Assembly (NCBI GenBank): GCA_964587475.1 | Contig: CAZPLF010000006.1 | Coordinates: forward strand, 1-64,000 | Source of the DNA: an uncultured Mariniplasma sp. | Lineage (GTDB): Bacteria > Bacillota_I > Bacilli_A > Acholeplasmatales > Acholeplasmataceae | Reading direction: 5' to 3' | DNA: 64,000 bases | Shown here: one piece after another, positions 5,288-22,160 of the stretch | Numbering within the stretch: position 1 is the first letter of the stretch | Layout of the letters: each line of letters starts with the position of its first letter | The notes under the pieces: model-generated | Seen by the model: only the letters and a program-made list of their open reading frames with translations | The model's database searches: none | Told to the model about the DNA's origin: nothing | Program-made: the position numbers and the translations under genes

Positions 5288-7993
5288 ATGGAATATAAAC
5301 ACACACTGCTTATGCCTAAAACCGATTTTCAGATGCGTGGTAATTTAGGTGTTAGAGAATTAGAATTTCAACAGAGATGGAAAGATATAGATTTATATCA
5401 AAAAGTCTTGGAACAAAATAAAGATAATGAACCTTTTGTACTACACGATGGACCTCCTTATGCGAATGGAGATATCCATATAGGACATACATTGAATAAA
5501 GTCTTGAAAGACTTTGTTTTGCGTTATCAGACAATGATCGGTAAGTATGTCAGATACATCCCAGGTTGGGATACTCATGGACTACCTATTGAAACAGCAT
5601 TAACCAAAAAAGGTATCAATCGTAAAGAAATGCCTCTTGTAGATTATCGCAAACTCTGTCAGAAATTTGCTGCTGAGCAAGTTGCAAAACAGAAAATCCA
5701 ATTTGAAAGACTCGGAATCTTGGGAGAATGGGATTATCCATATATCACTTATGATAAGGATTTTGAAGCAAGCCAAGTCAAGGTATTTGCTAAAATGGTC
5801 GATCGTGGATTGGTTTATAAAGGACTTAAACCGGTTTTTTGGTCTCCATCTTCAGAATCTGCGCTTGCAGAAGCTGAAATTGAATATCAGGATAAACAGT
5901 CGACATCAGTTTATGTTGCTTTTCCTTCGGTTGAACAAAAAGGATTATTACAAGATGCCTCTTTTATCATATGGACAACAACACCATGGACGCTACCAGC
6001 AAATCTGGCCATCTCAGTTCATCCACGTTTGAATTATAATGTGATTTTAGCAGATGGCAATAAGTATGTAGTTGGTGAAACATTGCTTAATGAATTAAAG
6101 AAAATACTCAATTGGACTGATGTTTCTATCTTGGGAACTCTTAAAGGGAAAGAATTAGAATTAGTTCAATATAAGCATCCGCTTTATGATCGCATTTCAC
6201 CTATTATTGTTGGTGAACATGTCACTGATACTGATGGTACTGGACTCGTTCATACAGCACCTGGACATGGTGAAGATGATTACCGTATCGGCAAAACTTA
6301 TAATCTTGAAATATTATGTCCTGTCGATGATAAAGGATATATGACAGAAGAAGCTGGACCATTTAGTGGTTTATATTACGAAGTAGCAAATGAAGAAATC
6401 GTCAAAGCACTTGAAGAAAAAAAGGTTTTACTCAGAAAAGATCGTTTCACTCACTCCTATCCTCATGATTGGAGAACTAAGAAACCAGTGATATTTAGAG
6501 CAACCCCTCAATGGTTTGCTAGTATTGATAAATTAAAAGATGAACTATTAGACGAAGTCGCTAAAGTTTCTTGGATCCCTGTTTGGGGTGAAGTCAGAAT
6601 TTCTAATATGATTACTGGTCGTGAAGACTGGTGCATTTCAAGACAACGTGCTTGGGGTGTTCCAATTCCTGTCTTTTATGCTGAAAACAATGAACCCATT
6701 TTGGATCAGAAAGTCTTGAGTCATATCAGTGATCTATTTAAAGAATTTGGTTCAGATGTATGGTATGAAAGAGAAGCTAAAGACCTACTACCAAAAGGAT
6801 TTAAACATCCTGGTAGTCCTAATGATTTGTTTAGAAAAGAAACTGACATCATGGATGTTTGGTTTGATTCTGGCACCTCATACTCCATTTTGGAATCTAG
6901 AGGCATCAAGTACCCTGCAGACCTCTATCTAGAGGGATCTGATCAATATCGTGGTTGGTTTAATTCTTCTCTGATCACTGGTGTTGCTGCCTATGGAAAA
7001 GCACCTTATAAAAAGGTCGTATCACATGGATTTGTTCTCGATGGACAAGGCAGAAAAATGAGTAAATCACTAGGTAATACAGTTGATCCTCTCGTGATTA
7101 TGAAACAGCAAGGTGCGGATCTATTAAGATTATGGGTTGCAACAGTTGATTATCAAAGCGACGTTAGAATCAGCAATGATATGATGACACAAATTTCTGA
7201 AGGTTATAGAAAAATCAGAAACACTTTCCGCTTTATGTTAGGTAATCTTGATGGATTCGACCCTGAAACGGATTACGTGGGTTATTCGATGAGAGGTAGA
7301 CTCAACCGTGTTATGACATTAAAATATAATCTTCTAGTATCACAAGTACTAGATGCTTATGAAAATTACGCTTTCGATAAGGTTTACCGCGCTGTTGTAC
7401 CATTTATGACGAATGAGTTATCGGCTTTTTATCTAGATTACACAAAAGACATCTTGTATATTGAAAAAGAAAATGACTTTGAACGTAAATGTGTTCAATC
7501 AACGCTATATGATATCACACTAGGAATGCTGAAATTATTGACACCAATCATTCCTCACACCACTTCTGAAGCTTATCTTTTATTACCATTTAGAGAAAAA
7601 GAAGACATTTATTTAGAGCAAATGCCAAGTGCAGGTAGTAAAATGGATGAATATCTTGTAGAAGCATTTGATATATTCGATTCTGTTCGACAAGTCGTTC
7701 TAAAGAAACTTGAAGATGCAAGAGAATTAAAGATTATTGGTAAATCACTTGCTGCTCAAGTCGATTTGATAGTGACCAAAGAGCAGATGGAAGCCATAAA
7801 GATTTTAGAAATGAAAATCCATCAAGTTTTGATCGTATCCAAAGTAAATATTACTTTAGGTGCTCAACTTGATGTCAAAGTATCACCCGCAACAGGAGCT
7901 ACATGTGATCGCTGTTGGAATATCGTTGATCATGTTCATGAAAATGGACTATGTGATCGATGCAATCATATCCTAGGAGAAGATAAAAAATGA
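5288..7993 (+). CDS. ileS: Isoleucyl-tRNA synthetase
   Basis: HIGH (PPYANGDIHIGH) and KMSKS motifs. Start placed at MEYKHTLLMPKT by alignment to the canonical IleS N-terminus. The ORF-track start at 5213 runs into the T-box. Confidence 0.93.
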   Translation: MEYKHTLLMPKTDFQMRGNLGVRELEFQQRWKDIDLYQKVLEQNKDNEPFVLHDGPPYANGDIHIGHTLNKVLKDFVLRYQTMIGKYVRYIPGWDTHGLPIETALTKKGINRKEMPLVDYRKLCQKFAAEQVAKQKIQFERLGILGEWDYPYITYDKDFEASQVKVFAKMVDRGLVYKGLKPVFWSPSSESALAEAEIEYQDKQSTSVYVAFPSVEQKGLLQDASFIIWTTTPWTLPANLAISVHPRLNYNVILADGNKYVVGETLLNELKKILNWTDVSILGTLKGKELELVQYKHPLYDRISPIIVGEHVTDTDGTGLVHTAPGHGEDDYRIGKTYNLEILCPVDDKGYMTEEAGPFSGLYYEVANEEIVKALEEKKVLLRKDRFTHSYPHDWRTKKPVIFRATPQWFASIDKLKDELLDEVAKVSWIPVWGEVRISNMITGREDWCISRQRAWGVPIPVFYAENNEPILDQKVLSHISDLFKEFGSDVWYEREAKDLLPKGFKHPGSPNDLFRKETDIMDVWFDSGTSYSILESRGIKYPADLYLEGSDQYRGWFNSSLITGVAAYGKAPYKKVVSHGFVLDGQGRKMSKSLGNTVDPLVIMKQQGADLLRLWVATVDYQSDVRISNDMMTQISEGYRKIRNTFRFMLGNLDGFDPETDYVGYSMRGRLNRVMTLKYNLLVSQVLDAYENYAFDKVYRAVVPFMTNELSAFYLDYTKDILYIEKENDFERKCVQSTLYDITLGMLKLLTPIIPHTTSEAYLLLPFREKEDIYLEQMPSAGSKMDEYLVEAFDIFDSVRQVVLKKLEDARELKIIGKSLAAQVDLIVTKEQMEAIKILEMKIHQVLIVSKVNITLGAQLDVKVSPATGATCDRCWNIVDHVHENGLCDRCNHILGEDKK

Positions 7994-8727
7994 ACATATT
8001 AGTTGTCAATGATGATGGATATCAAGCTGAAGGCTTAGGTATCTTGGTTAGAGCACTTACACCTTTTGGAAACGTTTATGTTTCAGCACCTAAAGATCAT
8101 CAAAGTGCTAAAAGTCATGCGATTACCATTAAAAGTCGTATCGAAACTTTTATGACGGAACCAATTTTTGGTTCAGCAGGAACTTTGGTTGTCGATGGAA
8201 CACCGGCAGATGCAACCCGTTTGGGTCTCAAGGTTTTTAATGTTGATTTTGATTTGGTCGTATCCGGAATCAATTATGGACAAAACATTGCATCTGATAT
8301 TTTATATTCAGGAACCGTCGCTGCAGCACTTGAAGCAAAAATCCTTGGTGTTGATGCAATTGCTATCTCAGCACACAATACACATTTGCCCTATTTATAT
8401 GACGAAACAATTAAATTGATGGATGAAATCATAGAAGCAAAACTCTATGAAGGTCCTGGCATTTTAAATGTGAATTTTCCAAGAGATACATTTGCAAGAC
8501 CAAAAGGTGTAAAAATTACACAAATGGGACAAAGATTGCAGCATGCAGAATTTATAAAAAGTGAGCGTCCCGATGTTTATCACATCAAATCCAGCATTAT
8601 TAGTTATCAGGAAAACGTTGATTCAGATGTTGCTGCATTTGATGAAGGTTTTGTATCTATAACACCACTTAATATCAATCGTACTGATTTTCAACGAATT
8701 AATGAGATTCTTAAGACAGAAAAATAG
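7990..8727 (+). CDS. surE: 5'/3'-nucleotidase SurE
   Basis: N-terminal ILVVNDDG signature. 245 aa. Confidence 0.85.
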   Translation: MNILVVNDDGYQAEGLGILVRALTPFGNVYVSAPKDHQSAKSHAITIKSRIETFMTEPIFGSAGTLVVDGTPADATRLGLKVFNVDFDLVVSGINYGQNIASDILYSGTVAAALEAKILGVDAIAISAHNTHLPYLYDETIKLMDEIIEAKLYEGPGILNVNFPRDTFARPKGVKITQMGQRLQHAEFIKSERPDVYHIKSSIISYQENVDSDVAAFDEGFVSITPLNINRTDFQRINEILKTEK

Positions 8728-8777
8728 TCATTAAACATAGTTTATGATAGAATAAATACATAGGGGTAGGTGAATTT

Positions 8778-9632
8778 ATGGCGCAATTTAATGTTCATTT
8801 TTTCAAGGAAAAAAGTAGAAAAATAGATTTAGATCAATTAATTGCTTTTTTTGATGATATTGAAGGTATCACTGTTGAAATGGATGAAAAGAGCGTTCGA
8901 TTTAATTATTTGCATCCAAGACTTCACTATGAAGCTCGTTTTTTAATTACGCCAAAATCTCAAGTCCCTGATATTTATCGTTTAAACCCTAAATATTTGG
9001 ATTTAAACTTTCACCTAGAAATGGTTATTTTAACTCCGGATTATGTTGCTAAACATTTGTTTGAAATTGTGAAGAAAGTCTGCGAACGATTTAATTTTCA
9101 CATTTATAATGAGATGTTTGAAGATGTGCTTCCATTCAAGATAGATGTCTTGAATAAAGTTTTTGCGATGCTTAAGGAAGCATATATAGTGAAAAATCCC
9201 GTTATTTTATCTGATTATCATATCTTACCAAAAGAACAGTTAAGTTCGATTCTTAGATATTTAGATGATTTACTAGAACTTCAAAAATATTATAAAGAAC
9301 TTGAAACATATGTTCCTAGATATCATTTTTTAACAACAGAAAAAAAAGAATTAGTCATTGGTATGGAATGGAAAGAACATTCATTAACCGTCTTTCCACC
9401 TTATCTCGATTATCTATTTTATCGTATCGGCAATGAAATAAAAATAGTGGCTTATGATGAAGCTTATCAGCTCATTGAAAAGTTTCTTCTTGACGTTCCT
9501 GGATTCATAAGAGAAACCAAGGTATTACCTAAGAAAACATCAAGTAAAGTGTTTAAGATTATGAAAAAAACAAAATTCAGTTTGATTAATCATACCTTCT
9601 CAAAGGAAAACGTTAAACACTTATTGGATTAG
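8778..9632 (+). CDS. Hypothetical protein
   Basis: 284 aa soluble ORF with good coding appearance and no recognisable motif. Confidence 0.5.
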   Translation: MAQFNVHFFKEKSRKIDLDQLIAFFDDIEGITVEMDEKSVRFNYLHPRLHYEARFLITPKSQVPDIYRLNPKYLDLNFHLEMVILTPDYVAKHLFEIVKKVCERFNFHIYNEMFEDVLPFKIDVLNKVFAMLKEAYIVKNPVILSDYHILPKEQLSSILRYLDDLLELQKYYKELETYVPRYHFLTTEKKELVIGMEWKEHSLTVFPPYLDYLFYRIGNEIKIVAYDEAYQLIEKFLLDVPGFIRETKVLPKKTSSKVFKIMKKTKFSLINHTFSKENVKHLLD

Positions 9633-9644
9633 AAGGAGTTTGTT

Positions 9645-10283
9645 TTGTTAAAAAAATATATAGTTCACATTTCAGGATTCGTTATTATATCACTTGGAAT
9701 TGTTGGTGTCATTTTCTCAAGACTTGGAGCAACTCCAGTTGATGCGTTTAATTATTTCATTTATACGCTCACCCCTTTCTCATTAGGGACGATTGTTATA
9801 TTTACAGGATTATTTGTAGCTTTGCTAGCATTTATCTTTAATCCAACAAAAGATATTATTCTCAGTATCTCATTTATTTTCTTAGTTGGCGTATTAATCG
9901 ATGGTTGGAAATTATTATTTGAATTAGTGCCTATCGCTTTTTATGACGAGTTGTTTATTCGTATTATTATGGCATCACTTAGTTTGATTTTAATTGCATT
10001 TGGTGTTGCTGTTACGATTACTACGGGAATTGTCACATCTCCATATGAAAAATTGATGATGGTTCTTAATAAAAAAATAAATAGTTTACAATTTTCAAAA
10101 ATGATTATTGAAGGAACATTTCTTATTTTAGCAATCATCATGGGAATTTACACAAAACAATTATTTGATCAAGTCAATGTTTTCACGGTCTTATTGGTAT
10201 TTGTCAATGGGCCATTGATTGGTATTTTTGCAAGAATGATCAATAAGAATGTAAAAAAAGGAGAAATTGGATATGCAACTTAA
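9645..10283 (+). CDS. YczE/YitT-like polytopic membrane protein
   Basis: 212 aa with about 6 TM segments and a Gly-rich N-terminus typical of the YczE/DUF161 family. Confidence 0.5.
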   Translation: MLKKYIVHISGFVIISLGIVGVIFSRLGATPVDAFNYFIYTLTPFSLGTIVIFTGLFVALLAFIFNPTKDIILSISFIFLVGVLIDGWKLLFELVPIAFYDELFIRIIMASLSLILIAFGVAVTITTGIVTSPYEKLMMVLNKKINSLQFSKMIIEGTFLILAIIMGIYTKQLFDQVNVFTVLLVFVNGPLIGIFARMINKNVKKGEIGYAT

Positions 10284-10417: not shown

Positions 10418-11125
10418 ATGCCAACACCGCATATTGATTTAGAAAATAAAGATTTAATAGCAAAAACAGTTTTAATGCCAGGAGATCCACTGAGAGCCAA
10501 GTATATTGCTGATAACTTCTTAACAAAAGTTGTTCAAATAAACGATGTCAGAAACATGTGGGGGTATACAGGTTATTTTGGTAAAAAGAAAGTTACCGTC
10601 ATGGGTTCTGGAATGGGTATGCCAAGTATTGGTATATACAGTTATGAACTGTTTAAGTTTTATGACGTTGAAAATATAATACGTATTGGATCATGTGGTG
10701 CTTATAGTGATGAATTAAAACTATATGATGTTGTCCTAGTTGAACAAGCATATTCTGAATCAAGTTATGCTAAGACAATGGGTGTTTCATCAAGAAAGAT
10801 TTTACCTGCAAATAAAACCCTTAATAATAAATTGATAAAAGCTGCAGAAAAAATCAATGTTAAATTACATCCTTCAGTTGTTCATTCTTCAGATGTTTTT
10901 TATCGATTGAAGAGTGACGAGTATAAAGAAATACATGAAAAATATGGCGCACAAGCCGTTGAAATGGAGTCATTTGCCTTATTTGCTAATGCTAAAGCAT
11001 TACATAAACGCGCAGCTTGTCTTCTAACCGTATCGGATTCCTTGGTGACACATGAGGCAACCTCATCACAGGAAAGACAAGAAGCATTTACAAAAATGAT
11101 GGAAGTTGCTTTAAATAGTATCTAA
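10418..11125 (+). CDS. deoD: Purine nucleoside phosphorylase, DeoD-type
   Basis: PNP family-1 motifs (MPGDPLRAKYIA, VMGSGMGMPS). 235 aa. Confidence 0.9.
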   Translation: MPTPHIDLENKDLIAKTVLMPGDPLRAKYIADNFLTKVVQINDVRNMWGYTGYFGKKKVTVMGSGMGMPSIGIYSYELFKFYDVENIIRIGSCGAYSDELKLYDVVLVEQAYSESSYAKTMGVSSRKILPANKTLNNKLIKAAEKINVKLHPSVVHSSDVFYRLKSDEYKEIHEKYGAQAVEMESFALFANAKALHKRAACLLTVSDSLVTHEATSSQERQEAFTKMMEVALNSI

Positions 11126-12324
11126 TGCTACTCATTAAAAATGATTTCAAAACGATACAATTCGCTGTCTACTTTACAGACTTAGACGAAGATGAAACAC
11201 GTGTGTATCGTTTTTTGTTGCCTAGATTATTAACATCACATACGAACCAATTACTCAATAAAACAATGATGAATGAAAAACTAGAAGATCTATATGGTGC
11301 CTACTTCAAATCACGCGTTGAACGTGTAGGCAATTTTTCTGTTGTAAGCATTATCTTAACCATTGTGGATCCTTTAATAGTTGAAGATGAACAGTTGATG
11401 AATCAAGCAATTGAACTTTTTAATCAAGTTCTTTACGATCATGATACTTTTGATAAGGATCTTTTCCTTGAAGAAAAAAGAATGGTGATTGAACAATGGG
11501 AAACGCTTCATGATAAGAAAAGATTGTATGCACAAACTAAATTTTATGAACATTTCTTCAAAGGTGATGCCTACGGAACACCTCTTTCAGGTAGTCTAGA
11601 GGACATAAAAAAATTAAACGTACAAAAACTAGAAAAATATTATAAAGAAGTATTTTTGAAAAATACAAAGAAATTCGTGGTAAATGGTAGAGTGAGTCGG
11701 GAAGATCAACTTAAACTTGAAAAAATGATGGCTCATGATTTAGAGAATAAGCATCCATTTGTAACATCATTTAGACCTGTAAGACCGCTACTTTTTATCG
11801 AAGAAGAAACTCAAATGAAGCAAGCAATTCTTAAACTGGGTTATCATTTTCCTATTTTCAGAGAAGATGAACACTACCATGCAGCTATTTTGTTAGATAC
11901 CATTTTAGGAGGTTATCCAGAAAGCAGGCTTTTTCAAGAGATTCGAGAAAAAGATGGATTGTGTTATGATATATCTTCTAACTATGATTACTATAAAGGC
12001 GTCATCATGATTAGTAGTGGTGTTGATCTTATTCAAAAAGATATGGCTTTGGAAGCAATCAAAAATTTAGTTTTAGACATGATTCTCAAAGGCGTTTCAG
12101 AAGAAGAGTTATTGCATGCAAAAGCATATTATACACATCAAATAATGAGTAGCCTTGACAATCAGTCTTTTTTAACAAAAAGAGCATTCATACGCGAGTT
12201 ACTCAATCATGATGAAACCATTGAAGAAAGACTCAATGCACTAAATAAAGTAACAATTGCTGATATTAAGATGCTTCTTAATATGATTACTTTAGATACT
12301 GTTTATGTACTTCACGGAAACTAA
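11125..12324 (+). CDS. M16-family peptidase, non-catalytic subunit (no HxxEH)
   Basis: 399 aa pitrilysin-like fold without the zinc-binding motif. Its likely partner is at 23263. Confidence 0.65.
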   Translation: MLLIKNDFKTIQFAVYFTDLDEDETRVYRFLLPRLLTSHTNQLLNKTMMNEKLEDLYGAYFKSRVERVGNFSVVSIILTIVDPLIVEDEQLMNQAIELFNQVLYDHDTFDKDLFLEEKRMVIEQWETLHDKKRLYAQTKFYEHFFKGDAYGTPLSGSLEDIKKLNVQKLEKYYKEVFLKNTKKFVVNGRVSREDQLKLEKMMAHDLENKHPFVTSFRPVRPLLFIEEETQMKQAILKLGYHFPIFREDEHYHAAILLDTILGGYPESRLFQEIREKDGLCYDISSNYDYYKGVIMISSGVDLIQKDMALEAIKNLVLDMILKGVSEEELLHAKAYYTHQIMSSLDNQSFLTKRAFIRELLNHDETIEERLNALNKVTIADIKMLLNMITLDTVYVLHGN

Positions 12325-12490: not shown

Positions 12491-12554
12491 TAAGCCAAAT
12501 ATAGACGTGAATATATGAAAGAAAATTACTCAATACAACAAAGAGGTGCGATTA

Positions 12555-13580
12555 GTGATAAAAAATAAAGATATCGCGATACGATCTGGGGTTTCTGTTG
12601 CTACTGTTTCTAGAGTGATGAATCAAAGTGGTTATGTCAAAGATGAAACTAAGGATTTGGTGCTCAAAGCATTCAATGAACTGGTCAATGACGATCAGCT
12701 TTTAGTTCAATCGATAGCAAATGGAAAAACCAATCTCATAGGTGTTGTTGTTCCGGATATTTCAAATCCTTTTTTTGGTGAGGTCATCAAGGGTATATCA
12801 AGCATAGCTGATCAACACTCCGCTAGTTTGTTAGTCTGCAACACAGAAGAACAACTAGATAAGGAAATTAAGTATCTAGAACTGTTTAAGACAAATAACA
12901 TCAAAGGCTTAATTATCACTCCAAAAACAGACCAAGGTGTTTATAATTCAAAATACTTATATCAGCTTGAAGGATTAGGGGTTCCTATTGTCTTATTAGA
13001 TCGCGGTATCAATTTATCTCATTTTAATTCGGTTTTCGTCAACAATACATCAGGTTCTTTTGATGCAATCAATGCTTTGATTAATGAAGGCCACAAAAAT
13101 ATTGCAATAATTTCAGGACCGATGTCATCCAAACCAGGACGTGAAAGATTCTATGGTTATGAAAACGCCTTGAAAAACAATAATCTACCAGTGAATAAAG
13201 ATTATATCTTCTTTGGTGATTTTAAGCTACAAAGTGGTTATGAAATAACCAAAAAAATTCTGAATCTTGAACATAGACCGACTGCTATTTTTGCAGCAAA
13301 CAATATGATGGCTCAAGGATGTATAAAAGCTTTAGTTGAAAACAAATTATCAATTCCAAAAGATATGTCATTTATTAGCTTCGATGATGTTGACATGTTT
13401 GAAATTATGAATCTCAATATTTCAACAGTATCAAGACCAACTGAATTAATGGGTATTGTCGCTGCTGAAATGCTATTTGAACTAGTAGATCATAAACAAG
13501 AGAAGCATACATCCATTAAGGAAGTATTGCTAGAAACCAAACTTGTTTTAAGAGGTTCAGAAAAATTAGTTAAAAAATAA
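12555..13580 (+). CDS. LacI-family transcriptional regulator (HTH plus periplasmic-binding-fold sugar sensor)
   Basis: N-terminal HTH IAIRSGVSVATVSRVMNQ. GTG start at 12555 follows RBS AGAGG. Confidence 0.85.
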   Translation: MIKNKDIAIRSGVSVATVSRVMNQSGYVKDETKDLVLKAFNELVNDDQLLVQSIANGKTNLIGVVVPDISNPFFGEVIKGISSIADQHSASLLVCNTEEQLDKEIKYLELFKTNNIKGLIITPKTDQGVYNSKYLYQLEGLGVPIVLLDRGINLSHFNSVFVNNTSGSFDAINALINEGHKNIAIISGPMSSKPGRERFYGYENALKNNNLPVNKDYIFFGDFKLQSGYEITKKILNLEHRPTAIFAANNMMAQGCIKALVENKLSIPKDMSFISFDDVDMFEIMNLNISTVSRPTELMGIVAAEMLFELVDHKQEKHTSIKEVLLETKLVLRGSEKLVKK

Positions 13581-13592
13581 GGAGTAAACAAT

Positions 13593-14411
13593 ATGGAAAT
13601 TAACGACATCAAACAAATCGTGAGAGATGAACTCGTTACGAGCATTCTAGAATCTCAAGAATTCTTGATTGTGGGTAATTGGAAAATGAATAAAACAAAA
13701 GTTGAAGTCAATGCTTTTTTAGACGATATTGCTAATCATGATTTTGGTGATAAAAATACGGTTGTCATTCTACCTCCAAGTGCTTATCTTTATCTATTTG
13801 AAGATAAACTGAGATTTAGTAAAGTACTATACGGAACTCAAAATTTCTATCCAAAAGAAAACGGTGCATTTACAGGAGAATTTTCAGTAGACATGATGAA
13901 AGATTTTGGATGTAAGTTTGCACTTGCAGGACATTCCGAAAGAAGAGATATATTTATGGAATGTGATGCATTTACTGCTAAAAAAGTGAGAAGTTGTTTA
14001 GAAAATCAAATTAAACCAATTTTATGCATTGGTGAAAATCTAGATCAAAGACAAACAACAGATTATAAACAGTTTTTAATTGATCAACTCAAAAGATCTT
14101 TGGACCGCGTTGAAGGAAAAGATTTAAGTCAAGTCATTATTGCCTACGAACCAATTTGGGCGATCGGTACTGGAGAGACAGCAACACCAGAACAAGTTGA
14201 AGAAATACATATGCATTTAAGAAAGTTTTTAGTTCAACAATATGGATCTGAAATTGGAAAAGAAATTCCTTTATTATATGGTGGAAGTGTTAATGCCAAA
14301 AATGTTAAGGAGCTTGCACTTGCAGAAAGTGTTTCTGGATTCTTAATTGGTGGAGCAAGCTTAAACGCTCAAACATTCATTGAGATAAGCAATATCCTAA
14401 ACGGAAAATAA
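13593..14411 (+). CDS. tpiA: Triosephosphate isomerase paralog with an N-terminal extension of about 21 aa
   Basis: GNWKMN, LAGHSERR and YEPIWAIGTG motifs. There are 27 residues before GNWKMN, against about 6 in housekeeping TpiA. Confidence 0.88.
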   Translation: MEINDIKQIVRDELVTSILESQEFLIVGNWKMNKTKVEVNAFLDDIANHDFGDKNTVVILPPSAYLYLFEDKLRFSKVLYGTQNFYPKENGAFTGEFSVDMMKDFGCKFALAGHSERRDIFMECDAFTAKKVRSCLENQIKPILCIGENLDQRQTTDYKQFLIDQLKRSLDRVEGKDLSQVIIAYEPIWAIGTGETATPEQVEEIHMHLRKFLVQQYGSEIGKEIPLLYGGSVNAKNVKELALAESVSGFLIGGASLNAQTFIEISNILNGK

Positions 14412-14451
14412 TAGTTGTTCATTAAAAAATCCTATAGAAAGGTAGAAGAAT

Positions 14452-15315
14452 ATGGAAATCAAAAATATCGATCGACTTGTCGACAAAGTCGCAGCAAATA
14501 TTTTAGATAAACTGGATTTAAAAACTACATATGGCAACATCAATCATAAATCCTGTTTCATTCTAATACCAAATATGGGACTGGGGATGAAAGAATATAT
14601 CGAATACATCATTGAACACTATCAAGGATACGAACTTTATTTAGCATCAAGAGAAAATGGAGCGAATGTTGGAGATTTTAAAAACATCAAAACACTTGAA
14701 TTTGATATGAAAAACCAAAAATTCATTCATCTCTTAGATTCAGTTGAAAATATCATTGTCTTAGGATTGAAAATCAATCAAATGAAATCTATCATTAAAA
14801 CTGATGACGAAGATGATGTGAATCAACTCATCCTAGAGGGACTTCTCGCAAATAAACAAGTCAACGTGATGATGAACGCAAATGAACATATCTTTAGTAA
14901 ACTAAAAAATATTGTTACTGATTTAAGACATATGGGAGTTTATGTAACTAACATCCATCAAGTGAAAGCTTCTTCAATTGTTTCAAATGTAGAAATTGAA
15001 AAGACACATCATTTAAATTCTCAACAGGAACCAGATAGATCATGGGCGATAGCAACAAAGATTGCACCTGAAAAATTATATACAGCATCTTCTAAGTTGG
15101 AAAAAGAATGTCAACTCAATCCTTTTAAAGAATCAAACGATGTACTCATACCATCAAAAAATGAATTGATTACAGAAAGTTATGTGTTAAAACTTAAAGG
15201 CAGAGGAGTTAGAACAATGATTCTTGATAAGAAACATTTAATTACGCCACTTGCAAAAGATAAATTAAGAGAATATAAAATAGATATCAAATATATAGAG
15301 GAGGCAAAATCATGA
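14452..15315 (+). CDS. Hypothetical BMC-locus protein with an amphipathic N-terminus
   Basis: 287 aa with no recognisable motif. N-terminus NIDRLVDKVAANILDKL. Sits between the TIM and aldehyde dehydrogenase genes. Confidence 0.55.
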   Translation: MEIKNIDRLVDKVAANILDKLDLKTTYGNINHKSCFILIPNMGLGMKEYIEYIIEHYQGYELYLASRENGANVGDFKNIKTLEFDMKNQKFIHLLDSVENIIVLGLKINQMKSIIKTDDEDDVNQLILEGLLANKQVNVMMNANEHIFSKLKNIVTDLRHMGVYVTNIHQVKASSIVSNVEIEKTHHLNSQQEPDRSWAIATKIAPEKLYTASSKLEKECQLNPFKESNDVLIPSKNELITESYVLKLKGRGVRTMILDKKHLITPLAKDKLREYKIDIKYIEEAKS

Positions 15316-16736
15316 GCACACAAGATCTAATTGAAAGACTTAGAGCAGAAATGGAAGAAAAATATGGAAATAAGTCAACAAATACAACAACACCTCGTGA
15401 AGCTATCAATGTAGGAAGACTTGGATGTTATGAAAATGTATTGGATGCTATTGCAGCAGCAAAAGCATCACAAGAACAATTGATGGAACTCTCCATGAAA
15501 AAGCGTAACGAAATCATTGCAGCGATGAGAAAAGCAAGTTTAGATAATGCTGAAAAACTAGCAGTGATGGCACATGAAGAAACCGGATTTGGTAGAGTTG
15601 CTGATAAAATTATCAAAAATATTTTAGCAGCAGAAAAAACACCAGGCACTGAAGATCTCAGATCTCGCGCATACACTGGTGATGATGGTATGACTTTAGT
15701 TGAAATGGCACCATTCGGAGTTATTGGCTCTATTACGCCATCTACTAACCCTAGTTCAACAATCATTAATAACAGTATTAGCATGGTTGCAGCAGGTAAT
15801 GGTGTCGTATTCAATCCTCATCCAAGTGCTAAAAAAGTGACGCTTGAGACGATTTCTATCCTCAATCAAGCCATCCATAAAGTGGGTGGACCTAAAGAAC
15901 TTTTGACTGCACCCATTGATCCAACCATGGAAACCAGCAAGGTCATCATGACGCATAAAGACATTAGAATGTTAGCTGTTACTGGTGGTGAAGCAGTTGT
16001 TGAAGTTGCTATGAGAAGCGGTAAGAAAGTCATTGCTGCTGGTCCAGGTAATCCTCCAGTGATTGTTGATGAAACAGCAAATATTAAGAAAGCTGCTAAT
16101 GATATCCTAAGAGGTTCAAGCTTTGATAACAATATCTTGTGTACTGCAGAAAAAGAAGCCTTTATTCTTAATAGCGTATTTAATGAGCTTAGAAATGAAA
16201 TGATTAGACTTGGAGCTTATGAACTAAAGCACCATGAAATAGATATCGTCACAAAAGAAGTGTTCATCAAGAATAATCAAGGTGAAACAGTAGTTAACAG
16301 AAAATATGTTGGCAAAAATGCTTCAGAGATTTTAAAAGCGTGTAAGATTCCAGTGAATCAAGATGTTAAGTTGATTCTTGCTGAAGTTGATGATTCTCAT
16401 CCATTTGTAAATATAGAAATGTTGATGCCAGTATTGGCATTAGTCAGAGTCTATTCGGTTGATGAAGCTATTGAAAAAGCAGTAGCTGCTGAAGCTGGAA
16501 GACATCACTCAGCCATGATGCATTCAGAAAGCGTTACGAACCTTACAAAAGCCGCACGCGCATTAGACACAACAATTTTTGTGAAAAATGCACCATCATT
16601 TGCTGGATTAGGTATCGAAGGAGAAGGTTTCACAACCTTAACCATTGCAACCCCAACAGGTGAAGGTTTAACCTCAGCTAGAAGTTTTACAAGAATTAGA
16701 AGATGTACTTTATCAGGCGGATTTAGAATTATTTAA
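15312..16736 (+). CDS. CoA-acylating aldehyde dehydrogenase (EutE/PduP family)
   Basis: ALDH fold with catalytic ILCTAEKE. The N-terminal peptide DLIERLRAEMEE resembles an encapsulation peptide. Confidence 0.85.
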   Translation: MSTQDLIERLRAEMEEKYGNKSTNTTTPREAINVGRLGCYENVLDAIAAAKASQEQLMELSMKKRNEIIAAMRKASLDNAEKLAVMAHEETGFGRVADKIIKNILAAEKTPGTEDLRSRAYTGDDGMTLVEMAPFGVIGSITPSTNPSSTIINNSISMVAAGNGVVFNPHPSAKKVTLETISILNQAIHKVGGPKELLTAPIDPTMETSKVIMTHKDIRMLAVTGGEAVVEVAMRSGKKVIAAGPGNPPVIVDETANIKKAANDILRGSSFDNNILCTAEKEAFILNSVFNELRNEMIRLGAYELKHHEIDIVTKEVFIKNNQGETVVNRKYVGKNASEILKACKIPVNQDVKLILAEVDDSHPFVNIEMLMPVLALVRVYSVDEAIEKAVAAEAGRHHSAMMHSESVTNLTKAARALDTTIFVKNAPSFAGLGIEGEGFTTLTIATPTGEGLTSARSFTRIRRCTLSGGFRII

Positions 16737-16757
16737 TGAAAAATAGGAGTGGATAAT

Positions 16758-18071
16758 ATGTCTATTGATTATATCCAAAGAATCAAAGAAATAGGGGTTG
16801 TCGGAGCTGGTGGTGCTGGTTTTCCAACACACGTCAAATTAAACAGTAAAGCTAAAATTGTCATTATCAATGGTGCTGAATGCGAGCCTCTGCTTAGAGT
16901 TGATCAACAATTGATGGAATTTTATCCCCAAGATGTTATAGCTGGATTAAAAATTGCAATGGCTCAAACTGGAGCATCTCAAGGTGTGATTGGCTTAAAG
17001 GGAAAGTATAAAACTGCAATCTTGAAACTCGAAGAACTGATTAAAGATGAAAGTTCAATAGAGATCAAGATTATAGGTGACTATTATCCCGCTGGCGATG
17101 AACAACAACTTGTTTATGAAGTCACCAAGAGAGTTGTTCCACTCATGGGTATTCCACTTGATGTGGGTGCTGTTGTCATTAATGTACTAACAGCAATTAA
17201 TATTGCGCGCAATAAGCCAGTTACTGAAAGAGTTGTTACAGTCACTGGAGTAGTGAAGAAACCACAAACGTTAATTGTTCCTGTGGGAACACCATTTCGT
17301 GAATTGATTGAAGCATGTGAAGGCCCTACTGACGAAAAGAACTTTAGTATCGTTGTTGGAGGACCTATGATGGGAAAAGTTGAATCCAATTGGGATACAC
17401 CCGTATCAAAAGTAACTGGTGGAATCATTGTCCTGCCAAATGATCAATATGTGATTGTTAAAAAGACAAGAAAAACCGAAACCGATCTTCAGTTAACAAA
17501 AGCGATTTGTTGCCAGTGTTCATTATGTACCGAGATGTGTCCAAGGAATATCATCGGACTCAATACAGAACCCCATAAGGTTATGAGAGGACTTGCCAAT
17601 GAAGATCCATCGACATTAGGTGCTATCGGTTCAGTCGTGTCTTGTTGTGACTGTGGATTATGCAGCATCTATGCATGTCCAATGGATTTAGATCCAGGTA
17701 AAATAACGAATTTGGTTAAGCAGAGCTTACTTAGAAAAGGTGCTAAAACCGAAAAGGTCATTCCTTATGAAGTTGATCCCTTAAGAGATAGCAAGAAGGT
17801 CCCAACAAAAAGGCTTATTGCAAGACTAGAATTATTAGATTATAATGTTGCAGCTCCCTTGAATTTCAATATATTTGAGACAAAGGCTGTAAAGGTTTTA
17901 TTAAAGCAACATATTGGTGTTGATGCAACACCAATTAAAAAGATTGGTGATACTGTTACGAAAGGTACATTAATTGCAACTTGTTATGATAAATTAGGTG
18001 CTAATGTTCATGCGAGCATCGATGGGCGCATTACAGATATTACTGATAAGTATATAGAAATACATGCATAA
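16758..18071 (+). CDS. PduS/RnfC-family flavin and 2x[4Fe-4S] oxidoreductase
   Basis: GAGGAGFPT nucleotide-binding site. Two Cys clusters: CCQCSLCTEMCP and CCDCGLCSIYACP. Confidence 0.8.
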   Translation: MSIDYIQRIKEIGVVGAGGAGFPTHVKLNSKAKIVIINGAECEPLLRVDQQLMEFYPQDVIAGLKIAMAQTGASQGVIGLKGKYKTAILKLEELIKDESSIEIKIIGDYYPAGDEQQLVYEVTKRVVPLMGIPLDVGAVVINVLTAINIARNKPVTERVVTVTGVVKKPQTLIVPVGTPFRELIEACEGPTDEKNFSIVVGGPMMGKVESNWDTPVSKVTGGIIVLPNDQYVIVKKTRKTETDLQLTKAICCQCSLCTEMCPRNIIGLNTEPHKVMRGLANEDPSTLGAIGSVVSCCDCGLCSIYACPMDLDPGKITNLVKQSLLRKGAKTEKVIPYEVDPLRDSKKVPTKRLIARLELLDYNVAAPLNFNIFETKAVKVLLKQHIGVDATPIKKIGDTVTKGTLIATCYDKLGANVHASIDGRITDITDKYIEIHA

Positions 18072-18085
18072 GGAGGAACTATGTT

Positions 18086-18631
18086 ATGGAAGCATTAGGC
18101 ATGCTCGAACTAAATAGTATTGCACGAGGTATTGAAGCTGGAGATACTGCGATTAAAACTGCTAATGTTAAATTAATTGGTGCTTATGCAGCTTGTCCTG
18201 GTAAATTTGTTGTGATGATAAGAGGTGAGGTTGCTGCTGTAAAAAGTGCCATTCAAGCTGGAGCTATCATCGCAGGTAAATCACTGATTAAAGATATCGT
18301 GATAGCAAATATACATGATCAAGTATTTTCAGCATTAAACTGTACAACAGAAATTGATCCAAAAGGTGCAGTTGGTATTATAGAAACCTATTCACTCGCA
18401 ACAGCTGTCTTAATATCTGATGCTGCCGTTAAGGCGGCAAGCGTTGAGTTATTGGAGATTAGATTAGGACGTGGACTTGGTGGAAAAGCATTTACCGTTT
18501 TGACTGGTGATGTGAGTAGCGTCAAAGCCGCAGTTGAAGCAGCTGTTATTGCCAGTAAAAATGATGGACTTTTAGCCCATACAGCAGTAATTCCAAGAAT
18601 TAGCAAGGAAATGTTACAAACATTGATTTAA
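18086..18631 (+). CDS. Tandem-domain BMC shell protein (BMC-T, PduT-like)
   Basis: Two BMC domains in 181 aa. Cys in AACPGKF sits at the position of the PduT pore 4Fe-4S ligand. Confidence 0.85.
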
Positions 18632-18656
18632 AAATAAAATAAGGGAGAATAAGAAA

Positions 18657-18932
18657 ATGGTAGTTGAAGCATTAGGATTAATCGAAACAAGAGGATTTGT
18701 AGGAGCTATTGAAGCTGCAGATGCAATGGTTAAAGCAGCAAATGTTAAACTTGTTGGAAAAGAAAAATCAGGTAGTGGATTAGTCGCAATTATGGTTCGT
18801 GGTGATGTTGGTGCCGTCAAAGCAGCAACTGAAGCTGGTGCTGAAGCAGCACGTAGAGTTGGAGAATTAGTATCAGTTCATGTGATCCCTAGACCACATG
18901 CAGATGTAGAAGACTTGCTTAGTAAGCTTTAA
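18657..18932 (+). CDS. BMC-H hexameric shell protein (PduA/EutM-like) 1
   Basis: [11 protein letters not shown]...[12 protein letters not shown] canonical BMC domain. Confidence 0.95.
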
Positions 18933-18963
18933 AAAAATAGATTAGAATAGGAGAATTAAAATT

Positions 18964-19236
18964 ATGAAAGAAGCATTAGGATTAATTGAAACAAGAGGAT
19001 TTGTTGCAGCAATTGAAGCTGCAGATGCAATGGTCAAAGCAGCAAATGTTAAACTAATTGGCAGAGAAAAATCAGGTAGTGGATTAGTTGCTATGATGGT
19101 TCGTGGAGATGTCGGTGCCGTCAAGGCAGCAACAGAAGCTGGCGCTGAAGCAGCGCGTAGAGTTGGAGAATTAGTATCAGTTCATGTGATCCCAAGACCA
19201 CATGCAGATGTTGAAGAATTACTCAACAATCTATAA
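18964..19236 (+). CDS. BMC-H hexameric shell protein 2
   Basis: Near-identical paralog of the previous gene. Confidence 0.95.
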
Positions 19237-19251
19237 AAAAGGAGAAAGAAA

Positions 19252-19560
19252 ATGAAAGAAGCATTAGGATTAATCGAAACTAGAGGTTTTGTCGCAGCAA
19301 TTGAAGCAGCAGACGCAATGGTTAAGGCTGCAAATGTAAGACTTATCGGAAAAGAAAAGTCAGGTAGTGGATTAGTAGCTATGATGGTTCGTGGTGATGT
19401 CGGTGCCGTCAAGGCAGCAACTGAAGCTGGCGCTGAAGCAGCTCGCAGAGTTGGCGAATTAGTATCAGTACATGTTATTCCAAGTCCACATGCAGATGTA
19501 GAAGAATTATTAAGTGCGCTTAAAGAATCACCTGCAAAAGTCGTCAAAGTAGCAAAATAA
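19252..19560 (+). CDS. BMC-H hexameric shell protein 3
   Basis: Paralog with a short C-terminal tail [13 protein letters not shown]. Confidence 0.95.
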
Positions 19561-19610
19561 TTTTTTGACAATAATTTGTGAATAAATCTATACAGAAAGG
19601 AGAAAACAAA

Positions 19611-19880
19611 ATGGTAGAAGCATTAGGTTTGATCGAAACTAGAGGATTTGTTAGTGCCGTCGAAGCTGCAGACGCAATGGTCAAAGCTGCAAATGTAAGA
19701 CTCATTGGAAAAGAAAAATCAGGCAGTGGGTTAGTCGCAGTTATGGTTCGTGGTGATGTAGGTGCCGTCAAGGCAGCTACTCAAGCTGGAGCTGAAGCAG
19801 CTCGCCGTGTCGGTGAGCTTGTTTCCGTACATGTTATTCCAAGACCACATGCAGATGTTGAAGAATTATTAAAGAAATAA
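19611..19880 (+). CDS. BMC-H hexameric shell protein 4
   Basis: Paralog. RBS AGGAG is 9 nt upstream of ATG 19611. The ORF-track start at 19578 is too long. Confidence 0.93.
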
Positions 19881-19889
19881 AAAGATAAA

Positions 19890-20675
19890 GTGAAAAGAGC
19901 TGAAATTATGGAATTAGATAAATTAATAGAAAGAATTGCTAATGAAATCTATAGCAAAATCGCAAAAGAAGACAATGGTTCATCAAGCATTAAAGTAAAT
20001 GACAATAGTGATCTTGCTAAAATGATTGATCATACATTGTTGAAACCAGAAGCAACAGAAGAAGATATTAAGAAGGTTTGTGAAGAAGCATTACAATATA
20101 AGTTTAAATCTGTTTGTGTAAACACACACTATGTTGCTTTAGTTTCACGTCTTTTGGCTGGATCTAGTGTTTTAACTTGTGGTGTTGTAGGATTCCCATT
20201 AGGTGCGATGACTACAAGAGCTAAAGTAGATGAAACTAGTGATGCGATTAAGAGTGGTGCACATGAAATCGATATGGTTATCAATATTGGTGCACTTAAA
20301 TCTGGCAATTGGAATATTGTCAAAAGTGATATTGAAGGTGTTGTCAATGTAGCAAGAGGTCGGGCGATAGTTAAAGTTATTTTGGAAACATCATTATTAA
20401 CTGATGAAGAAAAAATAAGAGCTTGTACAATTGCTAAAATGGCTGGTGCTGATTTTGTCAAAACCTCAACTGGATTTAATAAAGGTGGAGCAACAATCGA
20501 AGATATTACATTAATGCGTAAAGTTGTAGGACCACATATGGGTGTTAAAGCTTCTGGTGGTGTTCGTGATACTGAAACTGCGAGAGCAATGATTGCTGCT
20601 GGTGCAACAAGAATTGGAACAAGTTCAGGAATAAATATCATTAAGGGCTCTAAGCCTGCGACTGGTACTTATTAA
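19890..20675 (+). CDS. deoC: Deoxyribose-phosphate aldolase with an N-terminal extension of about 38 aa (SPU-type signature enzyme)
   Basis: Aligns along the full length with class-I DERA ([28 protein letters not shown]). Carries an extra N-terminal segment [19 protein letters not shown] plus a linker. The start may instead be ATG 19908. Confidence 0.9.
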
Positions 20676-20697
20676 TACCTAGAAAAGAGGAAATTAT

Positions 20698-21018
20698 ATG
20701 TATGCTGCGAGAATTATTGGAACTGTTGTGTGTACGCAAAAGGATCCAAGTATGAACAGTTTAAAGATGCAGGTTGTACAACCTGTTAACATCATTACCT
20801 TTAAAGATGAGGGTAAACCTGCAGTAGCAATTGATGCTGTTGGAGCTGGTGATTCAGAAATTGTTTTAGTTGTAGCTGGTAGTTCTGCAAGACTCACTGA
20901 ACTTACACAAAATAAACCTACTGATGCAACGATTATGGCAATTGTTGATTATGTCGATATTGAAGGTAAAAATGTCTTCAGTAAAAATAAAAAACAACCA
21001 GAAGTAGGTTCAAAATAA
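20698..21018 (+). CDS. BMC-P pentameric vertex protein (EutN/PduN/CcmL) 1
   Basis: 106 aa EutN fold. Opens with RIIGTVV. Confidence 0.85.
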   Translation: MYAARIIGTVVCTQKDPSMNSLKMQVVQPVNIITFKDEGKPAVAIDAVGAGDSEIVLVVAGSSARLTELTQNKPTDATIMAIVDYVDIEGKNVFSKNKKQPEVGSK

Positions 21019-21091
21019 ATTAAGACAAATCATCAGATTCAAAATGAAGATTAATATGCAATTTTTGCATATTATATAAGGAGATGTAACA

Positions 21092-21553
21092 ATGAAAATT
21101 GCTATTGGTTGTGACCATGGTGGTTATGAATTAAAGGAAAAAGCAAAAAAATATATTACAGAAGAATTAAAAATGCAAGTACAAGATTTTGGCACCTATA
21201 ATAAAAATAGATGTGATTATCCAGACTATGCATTTTTGGTTGCTTCTGCAGTTTCACTTAAAAAATGTGATTTCGGCATCATGATTGATGGCGCTGGTAT
21301 TGGTTCTTCCATGATGGCAAACAAAGTACCTGGCGTACTTGCTGCATGTGCAAATGAAGTCTATACAGCACATAATAGTCGCGAACATAACGGAGCTAAC
21401 GTTTTAACATTGGGTAGCTATGTTATAGGTGAAGGTGTCGCAAAAGAAATCATTAAAACATTCCTAAGTACCAAATTTGAAGGTGAAAGAAATTTACAAC
21501 GTGTAAAGAGTATTTTAGAAATCGAAAAAAGAATTTTAAGCAATAGGGAGTGA
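21092..21553 (+). CDS. rpiB: Ribose-5-phosphate isomerase B / LacAB-family sugar-phosphate isomerase
   Basis: MKIAIGCDHGGYELKE N-terminus. 153 aa. Confidence 0.88.
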   Translation: MKIAIGCDHGGYELKEKAKKYITEELKMQVQDFGTYNKNRCDYPDYAFLVASAVSLKKCDFGIMIDGAGIGSSMMANKVPGVLAACANEVYTAHNSREHNGANVLTLGSYVIGEGVAKEIIKTFLSTKFEGERNLQRVKSILEIEKRILSNRE

Positions 21554-21557
21554 TACT

Positions 21558-21830
21558 ATGCAAATGGCAAAAGTGATCGGTACTGTGACATCAACAGTCA
21601 AGATCAAAGATATTAAAGGTGTATCTTTACTAGTGATTCAACCTGTTAATTCAAAGTATGAATCACTAGGTGCACCTATTGTTGCCGGAGATAATTACGG
21701 TGCAGGTGTTGGTGAATATGTTTTCTATTCGAAAAGTAAAGAAGGAGCAATGAATTTACCGATTCCTACTTCATGTGTTGATGCTGGGATAGTTGGTATC
21801 ATTGATTATGTCTTTAGAAAAGATGAATAA
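21558..21830 (+). CDS. BMC-P vertex protein 2
   Basis: 90 aa EutN fold. Confidence 0.82.
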   Translation: MQMAKVIGTVTSTVKIKDIKGVSLLVIQPVNSKYESLGAPIVAGDNYGAGVGEYVFYSKSKEGAMNLPIPTSCVDAGIVGIIDYVFRKDE

Positions 21831-21851
21831 CATTAAGAATGAGGTGTTATT

Positions 21852-22148
21852 ATGCAACTAGCAATAGTCGTAGGGAATTTGGTTTCAACACATAAAAATG
21901 AATTAATCAAAGGAAAAAAACTTTTGTTTGTCCAACCTATTGATGAAAAATTGATCCCATTTGGTGATGAAATGCTTGCTGTTGATGCTGTAGGAGCAGG
22001 CATAGGTGATGTCGTTGTCATTCTGCATGAAGGTACGTCAGCAAGACAGGTTACCCATGCAGAAAGCAAATACTCACCAATCGAATTGTGTATTGCAGGC
22101 ATTGTCGATTCGATTAAAACTGAAGGTAGCTATAAAACTTTTGATTAG
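21852..22148 (+). CDS. BMC-P vertex protein 3
   Basis: 98 aa EutN fold. Confidence 0.82.
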   Translation: MQLAIVVGNLVSTHKNELIKGKKLLFVQPIDEKLIPFGDEMLAVDAVGAGIGDVVVILHEGTSARQVTHAESKYSPIELCIAGIVDSIKTEGSYKTFD

Positions 22149-22160
22149 TAGGATGATAAA

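Follow-up and report, generated by a model that had tools for sequence, protein, structure and literature searches.

A eut_hyp/PduM-type protein of a Mariniplasma SPU4 microcompartment operon as a candidate shell-core linker

Gene, operon and relatives

The window analysed here is a stretch of 64,000 nucleotides from an uncultured Mariniplasma sp. (contig CAZPLF010000006.1, assembly GCA_964587475.1), which includes a bacterial microcompartment (BMC) operon of the SPU4 type. This work concerns the second gene of that operon, coding for a 287-aa protein related to the eut_hyp and PduM families and considered below as a candidate linker between the compartment shell and its cargo core. The initial annotation placed this open reading frame (ORF) between the genes for triosephosphate isomerase (TIM) and aldehyde dehydrogenase (AldDH), and both its position and its strand were confirmed (Table 1). 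The protein was left unassigned at that stage, a fair label since a Pfam scan of it gives no match at E<0.01.

The ORF is a genuine gene rather than a chance one, since it has 42 homologues by a word-indexed search, most of them about 230 aa long, and the gene keeps its place between TIM and AldDH of the same operon in 24 out of 24 close-family loci. These species-representative loci belong to Mycoplasmatota, Izemoplasmatales, Mariniplasma or Haloplasmataceae, the nearest ones being those of uncultured Mariniplasma. Nearly all SPU4 loci, including that of Izimaplasma HR2, were reported to carry a eut_hyp (TIGR02536)-type protein (Supplementary Data 2 of the 2021 BMC catalogue, PMC8217296). The co-occurrence with other SPU loci that had been proposed as a check is thus found, and the absence that would have spoken against a compartment role is not.

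The operon order is TIM, the 287-aa gene, AldDH, PduS-like, BMC-T (18086-18631), four BMC-H genes (18657-19880), deoxyribose-phosphate aldolase (DERA, DeoC), BMC-P, RpiB, two further BMC-P genes and Pta. All the genes expected of an SPU4 locus are present: AldDH, DERA (pfam01791), RpiB (pfam02502), TIM (pfam00121), a phosphotransacylase (PTAC) and a BMC-P triplet. The locus is also syntenic with that of Izimaplasma HR2, which is classed as SPU4. It is not a eut operon, as it encodes DERA, RpiB and TIM, and Pfam scans found no EutABC in it. The PduS-like product, encoded two genes downstream of the 287-aa gene, is a flavo-iron-sulfur protein.

Table 1. Coordinates of the 287-aa gene, its translation signals, its protein segments and its surroundings in the window
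Feature	Position	Strand	Basis
ORF, 287 aa, ATG start, complete; eut_hyp-type / PduM-superfamily BMC accessory protein	14452-15315	+	
Ribosome-binding site GAAAGG, 9 nt 5' of the ATG	14437-14442	+	read from sequence
Amphipathic N-terminal helix, residues 4-21, register h....h..hh..h...hh	14461-14514	+	AlphaFold, hydrophobic moment, PduM/DERA match
Disordered tether, residues 22-30	14515-14541	+	pLDDT<50 at 21-30; least conserved segment, 33%
Six-stranded alpha/beta central domain, HFCD/UbiX flavoprotein-like fold, residues 31-172	14542-14967	+	
Disordered lineage-specific insertion of 58 aa, residues 180-237, between central domain and C-module	14989-15162	+	A1 alignment, pLDDT
Conserved C-module, residues 238-284, ELITESYV...ITPLAKDKLREYKIDIKY, beta-alpha-beta-beta-alpha-beta	15163-15303	+	identity, model, HMM, hhalign
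AldDH Shine-Dalgarno sequence GAGGAGG within the final codons of the 287-aa ORF	15298-15304	+	read from sequence
ATGA overlap, stop of the 287-aa ORF / start of AldDH	15312-15315	+	read from sequence
SPU4-type BMC host operon	13593-23162	+	Pfam scans; gene order common to Izimaplasma HR2 and 23 further loci
LacI regulator, upstream of the operon	12546-13580		
TIM, 5' neighbour of the 287-aa gene	13593-14411		
AldDH, 3' neighbour of the 287-aa gene	15312-16736		

Exhaustive profile search of 1.84 billion proteins returned 227 cluster representatives at E<=0.001. Two alignments were used throughout: A1, consisting of 33 close subfamily members, and A3, consisting of 73 distant relatives. Their profiles match over the full length (hhalign 100%, E 2e-39). 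Five distant relatives have contigs that are informative about their surroundings, and each of the five is encoded in a BMC locus, either SPU-like or of EUT type (P0173 and P0053, on contigs too short for gene context, are outside this count). One of the distant relatives, P0146, belongs to a Firmicute eut locus. The neighbours of the distant relatives are PduL or EutN instead of AldDH, in the order PTAC(PduL)-X-EutN.

Some minor observations were made among these loci. In the SPU-like operon encoding P0100, a citrate synthase gene lies between the P0100 gene and EutN, and a LAGLIDADG-type ORF is found among the shell genes (L037:2297-3793 and 8145-9680). A split match in L027 was caused by a masked run of N and is not a variant. 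P0188 and P0189, which have identical C-terminal halves and unrelated N-termini, were discarded as probable assembly or gene-call chimeras.

The 287-aa gene evolves fastest in its operon, with a mean identity of 38.9% (range 30-52%) versus 70-89% for all the other operon genes. Conservation is unevenly distributed along the protein: mean identity is 66% in the C-module, 53% in the N-terminal helix, 47% in the central domain and 33% in the tether. Low identity of the whole protein (39%) combined with the best preservation of its C-module and N-helix is a non-enzyme signature, and the unknown cargo enzyme suggested by the initial annotation appears less likely. The nearly invariant C-terminal tail EE[AD]K coincides with the Shine-Dalgarno sequence GAGGAGG and the ATGA overlap (15298-15315), so constraint at the nucleotide level may account for a part of the apparent protein conservation there.

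Domain architecture and the C-module

Structure prediction, which had been recommended as a check, was performed with AlphaFold using 33 sequences, and it gave an HFCD-flavoprotein-like central domain and a confident small C-module, not a phosphotransacylase fold. The predicted local distance difference test score (pLDDT) is 77-91 for the central domain (residues 31-172) and about 30 across residues 173-228. The 58-aa insertion is seen only in the closest, Mariniplasma-like, relatives, while the orthologues of about 230 aa in A1 lack it. The C-module modelled alone is a small alpha/beta unit with a pLDDT of 84, and T265-P266-L267-A268-x-D270 form an invariant face of it.

The amphipathic N-terminus noted initially was borne out as well. 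Along the protein the hydrophobic moment peaks at residues 4-17 (0.73, a value reached by 69 out of 5000 shuffles), AlphaFold predicts a helix at residues 4-21, and its hydrophobic register is kept across the 33 close and 73 distant homologues and is common to PduM. The helix EIKNIDRLVDKVAANI can be aligned with residues 1-21 of Salmonella PduM with neither gap nor offset (BLOSUM62 score 18 over 20 aa, reached by 34 of 20000 shuffles). It is nearly identical to the N-terminal helix of DERA from the same operon (BLOSUM62 score 38 over 16 aa). These two matches support its reading as an encapsulation peptide (EP). In experiments, PduM residues 1-23 sufficed for targeting to the core of the compartment (PMC12108088). 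As the helix of the 287-aa protein resembles the PduM signal helix in both sequence and register, a similar targeting may be proposed by analogy.

Similar amphipathic N-terminal extensions precede the catalytic domains of TIM, DERA and AldDH. That of DERA is about 40 aa long and includes the helix (19890-20030). In TIM the extension MEINDIKQIVRDELVTSILESQEF (residues 1-24; 13593-13664) stands ahead of the canonical GNWKMN, and the Pfam match starts from residue 25; this extension is an EP-like amphipathic helix and agrees with the SPU literature on SPU4 TPI. The near identity of the DERA and 287-aa helices suggests a single recognition code shared by several proteins of the operon.

A part of this picture was known. 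The supplement to the 2021 catalogue describes both the flavoprotein (pfam02441) relationship of the SPU4 eut_hyp-type proteins and their N-terminal EP of 30-40 aa, in which an amphipathic helix leads into a linker of poor conservation (PMC8217296). The 287-aa protein has the same arrangement: the helix at residues 4-21 with the top hydrophobic moment is followed by a disordered segment (residues 21-30) that overlaps the 33%-identity tether. It shares with these published proteins the locus type, the TIGR02536 signal, the flavoprotein relationship and the helix-plus-linker N-terminus, and differs from them in its score (47.9 versus 152.6 bits) and in the 58-aa insertion; in the lineage of the window, moreover, the gene is located between TIM and AldDH, not beside a PduL-type PTAC, and the Pta belongs to PF01515. 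Our results on family, fold and EP thus reproduce the published observation. What they add is a homology bridge that joins eut_hyp to PduM and to the end of EutQ that binds the shell. A search of the accessible literature did not find the link between eut_hyp, PduM and the EutQ N-terminal module, and the eut_hyp-type protein goes unmentioned in the main text of the experimental study of SPU BMCs from 2024.

The relationship to eut_hyp was evaluated using the NCBIfam model TIGR02536, which matches the 287-aa protein with E 1.2e-12 and 47.9 bits, below the cutoff of 152.6, as expected of a relative and not an equivalog. The same model matches 33/33 close and 72/73 distant homologues, all of them under the cutoff. 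The PduM model TIGR04493 matches the C-terminus of the 287-aa protein (E 0.0063, 16.4 bits, below the cutoff of 50), as well as 30 of the 33 close and 26 of the 73 distant homologues. PF15953, carried by all source-named PduM proteins, has no match to the 287-aa protein at E<=1 and weakly matches 22 of the 33 subfamily members (best E 1.9e-5).

Comparison of profiles extends these matches. A3 aligns with the enterobacterial PduM profile over 121 columns (hhalign 90.7%, E 1.3e-6, PduM residues 41-161), a stretch that takes in the C-module together with the latter half of the central domain. The C-module of A3 also aligns with residues 2-48 of an annotated Klebsiella EutQ (hhalign 93%, E 3.4e-7), and four distant relatives weakly match the full-length EutQ model. 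The alignment to EutQ stops at residue 48, and no match to PF06249 or to a cupin was found, so neither the H3/H4 helices nor the cupin (acetate kinase) domain of EutQ has a counterpart here.

An independent HMMER hidden Markov model (HMM) of the C-module was built from the distant relatives only, with 3000 shuffles for each control that is quoted below. It scores 27.2 bits with EutQ residues 1-60 (best shuffle 8.4), 20.2 bits with PduM residues 110-163 (best shuffle 7.0), 64.5 bits with the N-terminal extension of a Bacteroidetes RpiB (best shuffle 10.4) and 56.6 bits with residues 228-287 of the 287-aa protein. The C-terminal PduM module containing ...VTALAR[DE]AA... is therefore recognised by both the module HMM and the A3-PduM alignment, and the EutQ H1/H2 module (about residues 9-41) is recognised by homology through the wider family; binding to the shell would follow by analogy. 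The initial annotation named a scaffold analogous to PduM among its options, and the relationship goes beyond analogy, as the wider family is homologous to PduM.

Gene order supports the link to PduM too. In the pdu operon the genes follow as pduL-pduM-pduN, an order which is mirrored by the PTAC-X-EutN arrangement in the loci of the distant relatives. The gene of the window itself is not placed between a PduL-type PTAC and BMC-P, as its neighbours are TIM and AldDH and PduL is missing from the operon.

Pfam scans of seven isolated C-modules gave PduM's own PF15953 only, plus a weak sub-threshold E3_binding match. The latter recurs in the C-modules of P0100 and P0154 (...ITPLAKDKARELGIDI...), where about 18 residues resemble the peripheral-subunit-binding family PF02817 (E ~0.008-0.01). 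This resemblance is probably a convergent helix-turn motif, and we do not claim homology.

Natural variants indicate which parts of the protein are kept. Mini variants of 90 aa, made up of the N-helix, linker and C-module with no central domain, were found in two diverged Mycoplasmatota genomes (P0060 and L029:9887-10159), where they occupy the identical TIM-X-AldDH position. In a Bacteroidetes metagenome-assembled genome (L030:9995-10648), RpiB is extended at its N-terminus by the module (MKKLITESDVLNLFRTGSKVLFVDSGTIITPLAKDKLKELKIEL). Within 10 kb of this fusion there are no BMC genes, its neighbours being ManC, DHODH and a Mur ligase; possibly it is a satellite gene that supplies cargo to a BMC whose own genes lie elsewhere. 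Another fusion, P0122 (412 aa, L032:3484-4722), joins an entire PduL-type PTAC to the C-module and the second half of the central domain, and is followed by PduS and BMC genes. Since the mini variants keep only the helix, linker and module, and the module fuses to RpiB, the helix and the module appear to form the conserved functional core of the family. The central domain, on the same comparisons, looks dispensable in some lineages and is half-length in PduM. Spacing between the helix and the module is free to vary, as indicated by the 58-aa disordered insertion and the mini variants.

Proposed function and its alternatives

Experimental work on the relatives outlines what such a protein may do. 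Residues 9-41 of EutQ (H1/H2) contact the shell proteins EutM/EutL according to deletion, imaging and binding assays, and their deletion separates shell and cargo; the bridge from shell to cargo is completed by a flexible segment and by H3/H4, to which cargo EPs bind (PMC12487888). EutM pull-down requires EutQ residues 1-100 (PMC4827028). Deletion of pduM partly separates shell and cargo (PMC9132943).

We propose that the gene is the SPU4 version of the eut_hyp/PduM superfamily and encodes a non-enzymatic shell-core linker, and we estimate the probability of this reading at about 0.6. The N-helix, being of the same type as the extensions of DERA, TIM and AldDH, would co-assemble with the cargo core like the PduM signal sequence. 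The C-module, homologous to EutQ H1/H2, would anchor the protein to a shell component, BMC-H and/or BMC-T, and the 58-aa disordered insertion would serve as a lineage-specific flexible spacer. The HFCD fold is characteristically trimeric. As a Listeria TIGR02536 protein was also predicted to be a trimer docking on the EutL trimer (2026 atlas, PMC13181095), the flavoprotein-like central domain probably oligomerises, which would make the linker multivalent.

The comparison with known linkers is informative both ways. PduM shares with the 287-aa protein the helix register, the second half of the central domain and the C-module, as well as the pduL-pduM-pduN-like gene order in the case of the relatives, and the proposed linking of shell and core agrees with PduM genetics. 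PduM differs by being shorter (163 aa), by lacking the first half of the flavoprotein-like domain and by belonging to PDU rather than SPU compartments. The N-terminal linker of EutQ (residues 1-99) has in common the module (EutQ 2-48), a flexible segment and a second element engaging the cargo core. The order of these parts is reversed, the module being N-terminal in EutQ and C-terminal in the 287-aa protein; EutQ binds cargo EPs through H3/H4, whereas the 287-aa protein bears an EP-like helix itself; the cupin/acetate kinase domain is found only in EutQ and the flavoprotein-like domain only in the 287-aa protein. CcmN and CsoS2, carboxysome linkers named as analogues in the literature (PMC12487888, PMC9132943), offer only a functional analogy, that of a fast-evolving, partly disordered shell-cargo adaptor, and no sequence or fold relationship to them turned up in any search made.

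Several points weigh against the linker role. Direct hhalign comparison of A1 with PduM covers only the last 28 columns (E 0.013, not significant), and neither A1 with EutQ (E 0.11) nor PduM with EutQ (E 0.13) gives a significant match; the links of the 287-aa protein to PduM and EutQ, as judged from profiles, are transitive via the wider family. PduM stays with the cargo and not with the shells when PduB residues 1-37 are missing (PMC9132943), so the module may, by analogy, have as its partner an extension of a shell protein and not the tile. The BMC-T of SPU4 is of PduT type, not of PduB/EutL type, which makes the shell partner uncertain. EutQ H1/H2 were described as helices, whereas the C-module model is a small alpha/beta unit. 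The central domain of the subfamily (A1) contains the invariant polar residues D119, K135, N144 and N167, which exceed the needs of a spacer and possibly form a ligand site. The reality of the ORF, its conservation and synteny, the domain architecture and fold, and the homology to the wider family, PduM and the EutQ N-terminus were computed; each binding step of the 287-aa protein we infer from experiments which concern only its homologues PduM and EutQ.

Such a ligand site would suit an encapsulated cofactor-binding protein, in which the central domain binds FMN or a nucleotide and acts as an enzyme or redox partner (e.g., of the PduS-like protein), while the N-helix is a cargo EP. We regard this, the main rival of the linker reading, as unlikely. 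The central-domain fold matches HFCD/UbiX flavoproteins (PF02441) at the fold level, with 9-17% identity to HFCD/UbiX/DmrB proteins, and the BMC-specific terminal modules belong to the 287-aa protein. At the profile level the similarity was not detected: PF02441 matches none of the 33 subfamily members, hhalign comparison of E. coli UbiX with the profiles of both the subfamily and the wider family is negative (<1%; the homologue search with UbiX as a bait returned near-identical E. coli sequences only), and searches of the PDB with both profiles gave nothing meaningful, including any solved flavoprotein. In the wider-family consensus, conservation is lacking in the glycine-rich phosphate loop that follows strand 1, and no canonical FMN-binding loop is recognisable in the 287-aa protein. 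A resemblance noticed by eye between 'GLKINQM...MNAN' and the HFCD PASANT/PxMN motifs was dropped as unsupported given the negative UbiX comparison. In addition, the domain is without its N-terminal half in PduM and missing altogether from the mini variants, the gene is the fastest evolving one in the operon, and Firmicute eut loci have the family but no PduS in the 10 kb seen downstream.

No less doubtful is a role confined to the core, either as an oligomeric hub with helices that nucleate the cargo condensate or as an AldDH-specific assembly factor or chaperone, without any contact with the shell. The ATGA overlap and the Shine-Dalgarno sequence of AldDH inside the coding sequence, from which translational coupling of the two genes is probable, are consistent with such a role, and so are the adjacency of AldDH in all 24 loci and the retention of PduM with the cargo in the absence of PduB 1-37. 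Against it, the distant relatives adjoin PduL or EutN and not AldDH, and the protein is best conserved in the module whose EutQ homologue is the region that binds the shell.

The degenerate phosphotransacylase of the initial annotation is effectively refuted: TIGR02536-type genes are often located beside PduL and one fusion protein exists, but neither the 287-aa protein nor the 33 members give a PF06130 or PF01515 signal, the fold is HFCD-like and not that of PduL or Pta, the operon has an intact Pta of its own, the PduL domain of the fusion is complete and separate, and in the loci of distant relatives the family has a gene of its own beside PduL.

A broader form of the linker proposal may be put forward tentatively, at somewhat worse than even odds. 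The module of about 45 residues, [LV][IV]T..D[VI]...G...-IITP[LE]A[KR][DE]-, could be a universal metabolosome anchoring module, with the 287-aa protein as the SPU4 shell-core linker. It would then be shared by three assembly factors regarded until now as unrelated, PduM (PDU), the EutQ N-terminus (enterobacterial EUT) and the eut_hyp-type proteins (Firmicute EUT and SPU4), and occasionally be placed on the cargo proteins PduL and RpiB. Gram-positive EutQ lacks H1-H3, and the assembly of such compartments was left open (PMC12487888). In the Firmicute eut locus L033, EutQ is only 151 aa long and lacks the module, and a eut_hyp-like gene bearing the module is found three genes upstream. If the proposal is true, eut_hyp fills the role of the missing EutQ H1-H3 in Gram-positive Eut and SPU organelles, which would answer that question, and the statement that PduM has no homologues outside Pdu (PMC12108088) would be contradicted.

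SPU compartments rank among the most widespread bacterial microcompartments. If the homology of the module holds, one small domain joins shell and cargo in PDU, EUT and SPU compartments, which would provide PduM with a mechanism. The module would also constitute, if the anchoring proposal is true, a second portable tag beside encapsulation peptides for engineered cargo loading, with the 90-aa mini variant as a ready minimal linker.

Other features of the operon

The Pta of the operon (22161-23162) is of the housekeeping type (PF01515), whereas the SPU literature lists a PduL-type PTAC (PF06130) for SPU4. Its Pfam domain begins at residue 3, leaving no N-terminal extension, so encapsulation may be absent. 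Izimaplasma HR2 likewise has a PF01515 Pta without an N-terminal extension.

Genes for a SurE 5'/3'-nucleotidase and a PNP/UDP-family nucleoside phosphorylase are located just upstream of the operon (7990-8727 and 10418-11125), consistent with a feed from nucleotides to deoxyribose phosphate for catabolism in the compartment. The LacI gene and the BMC operon are bracketed by genes of M16-family peptidases, an M16_C-only one upstream (11125-12324) and an M16+M16_C one downstream (23263-24537). The Izimaplasma HR2 operon is flanked differently, by RsmH and a deoxynucleoside kinase. Possibly the operon of the window is an island that split a pair of peptidase genes on insertion.

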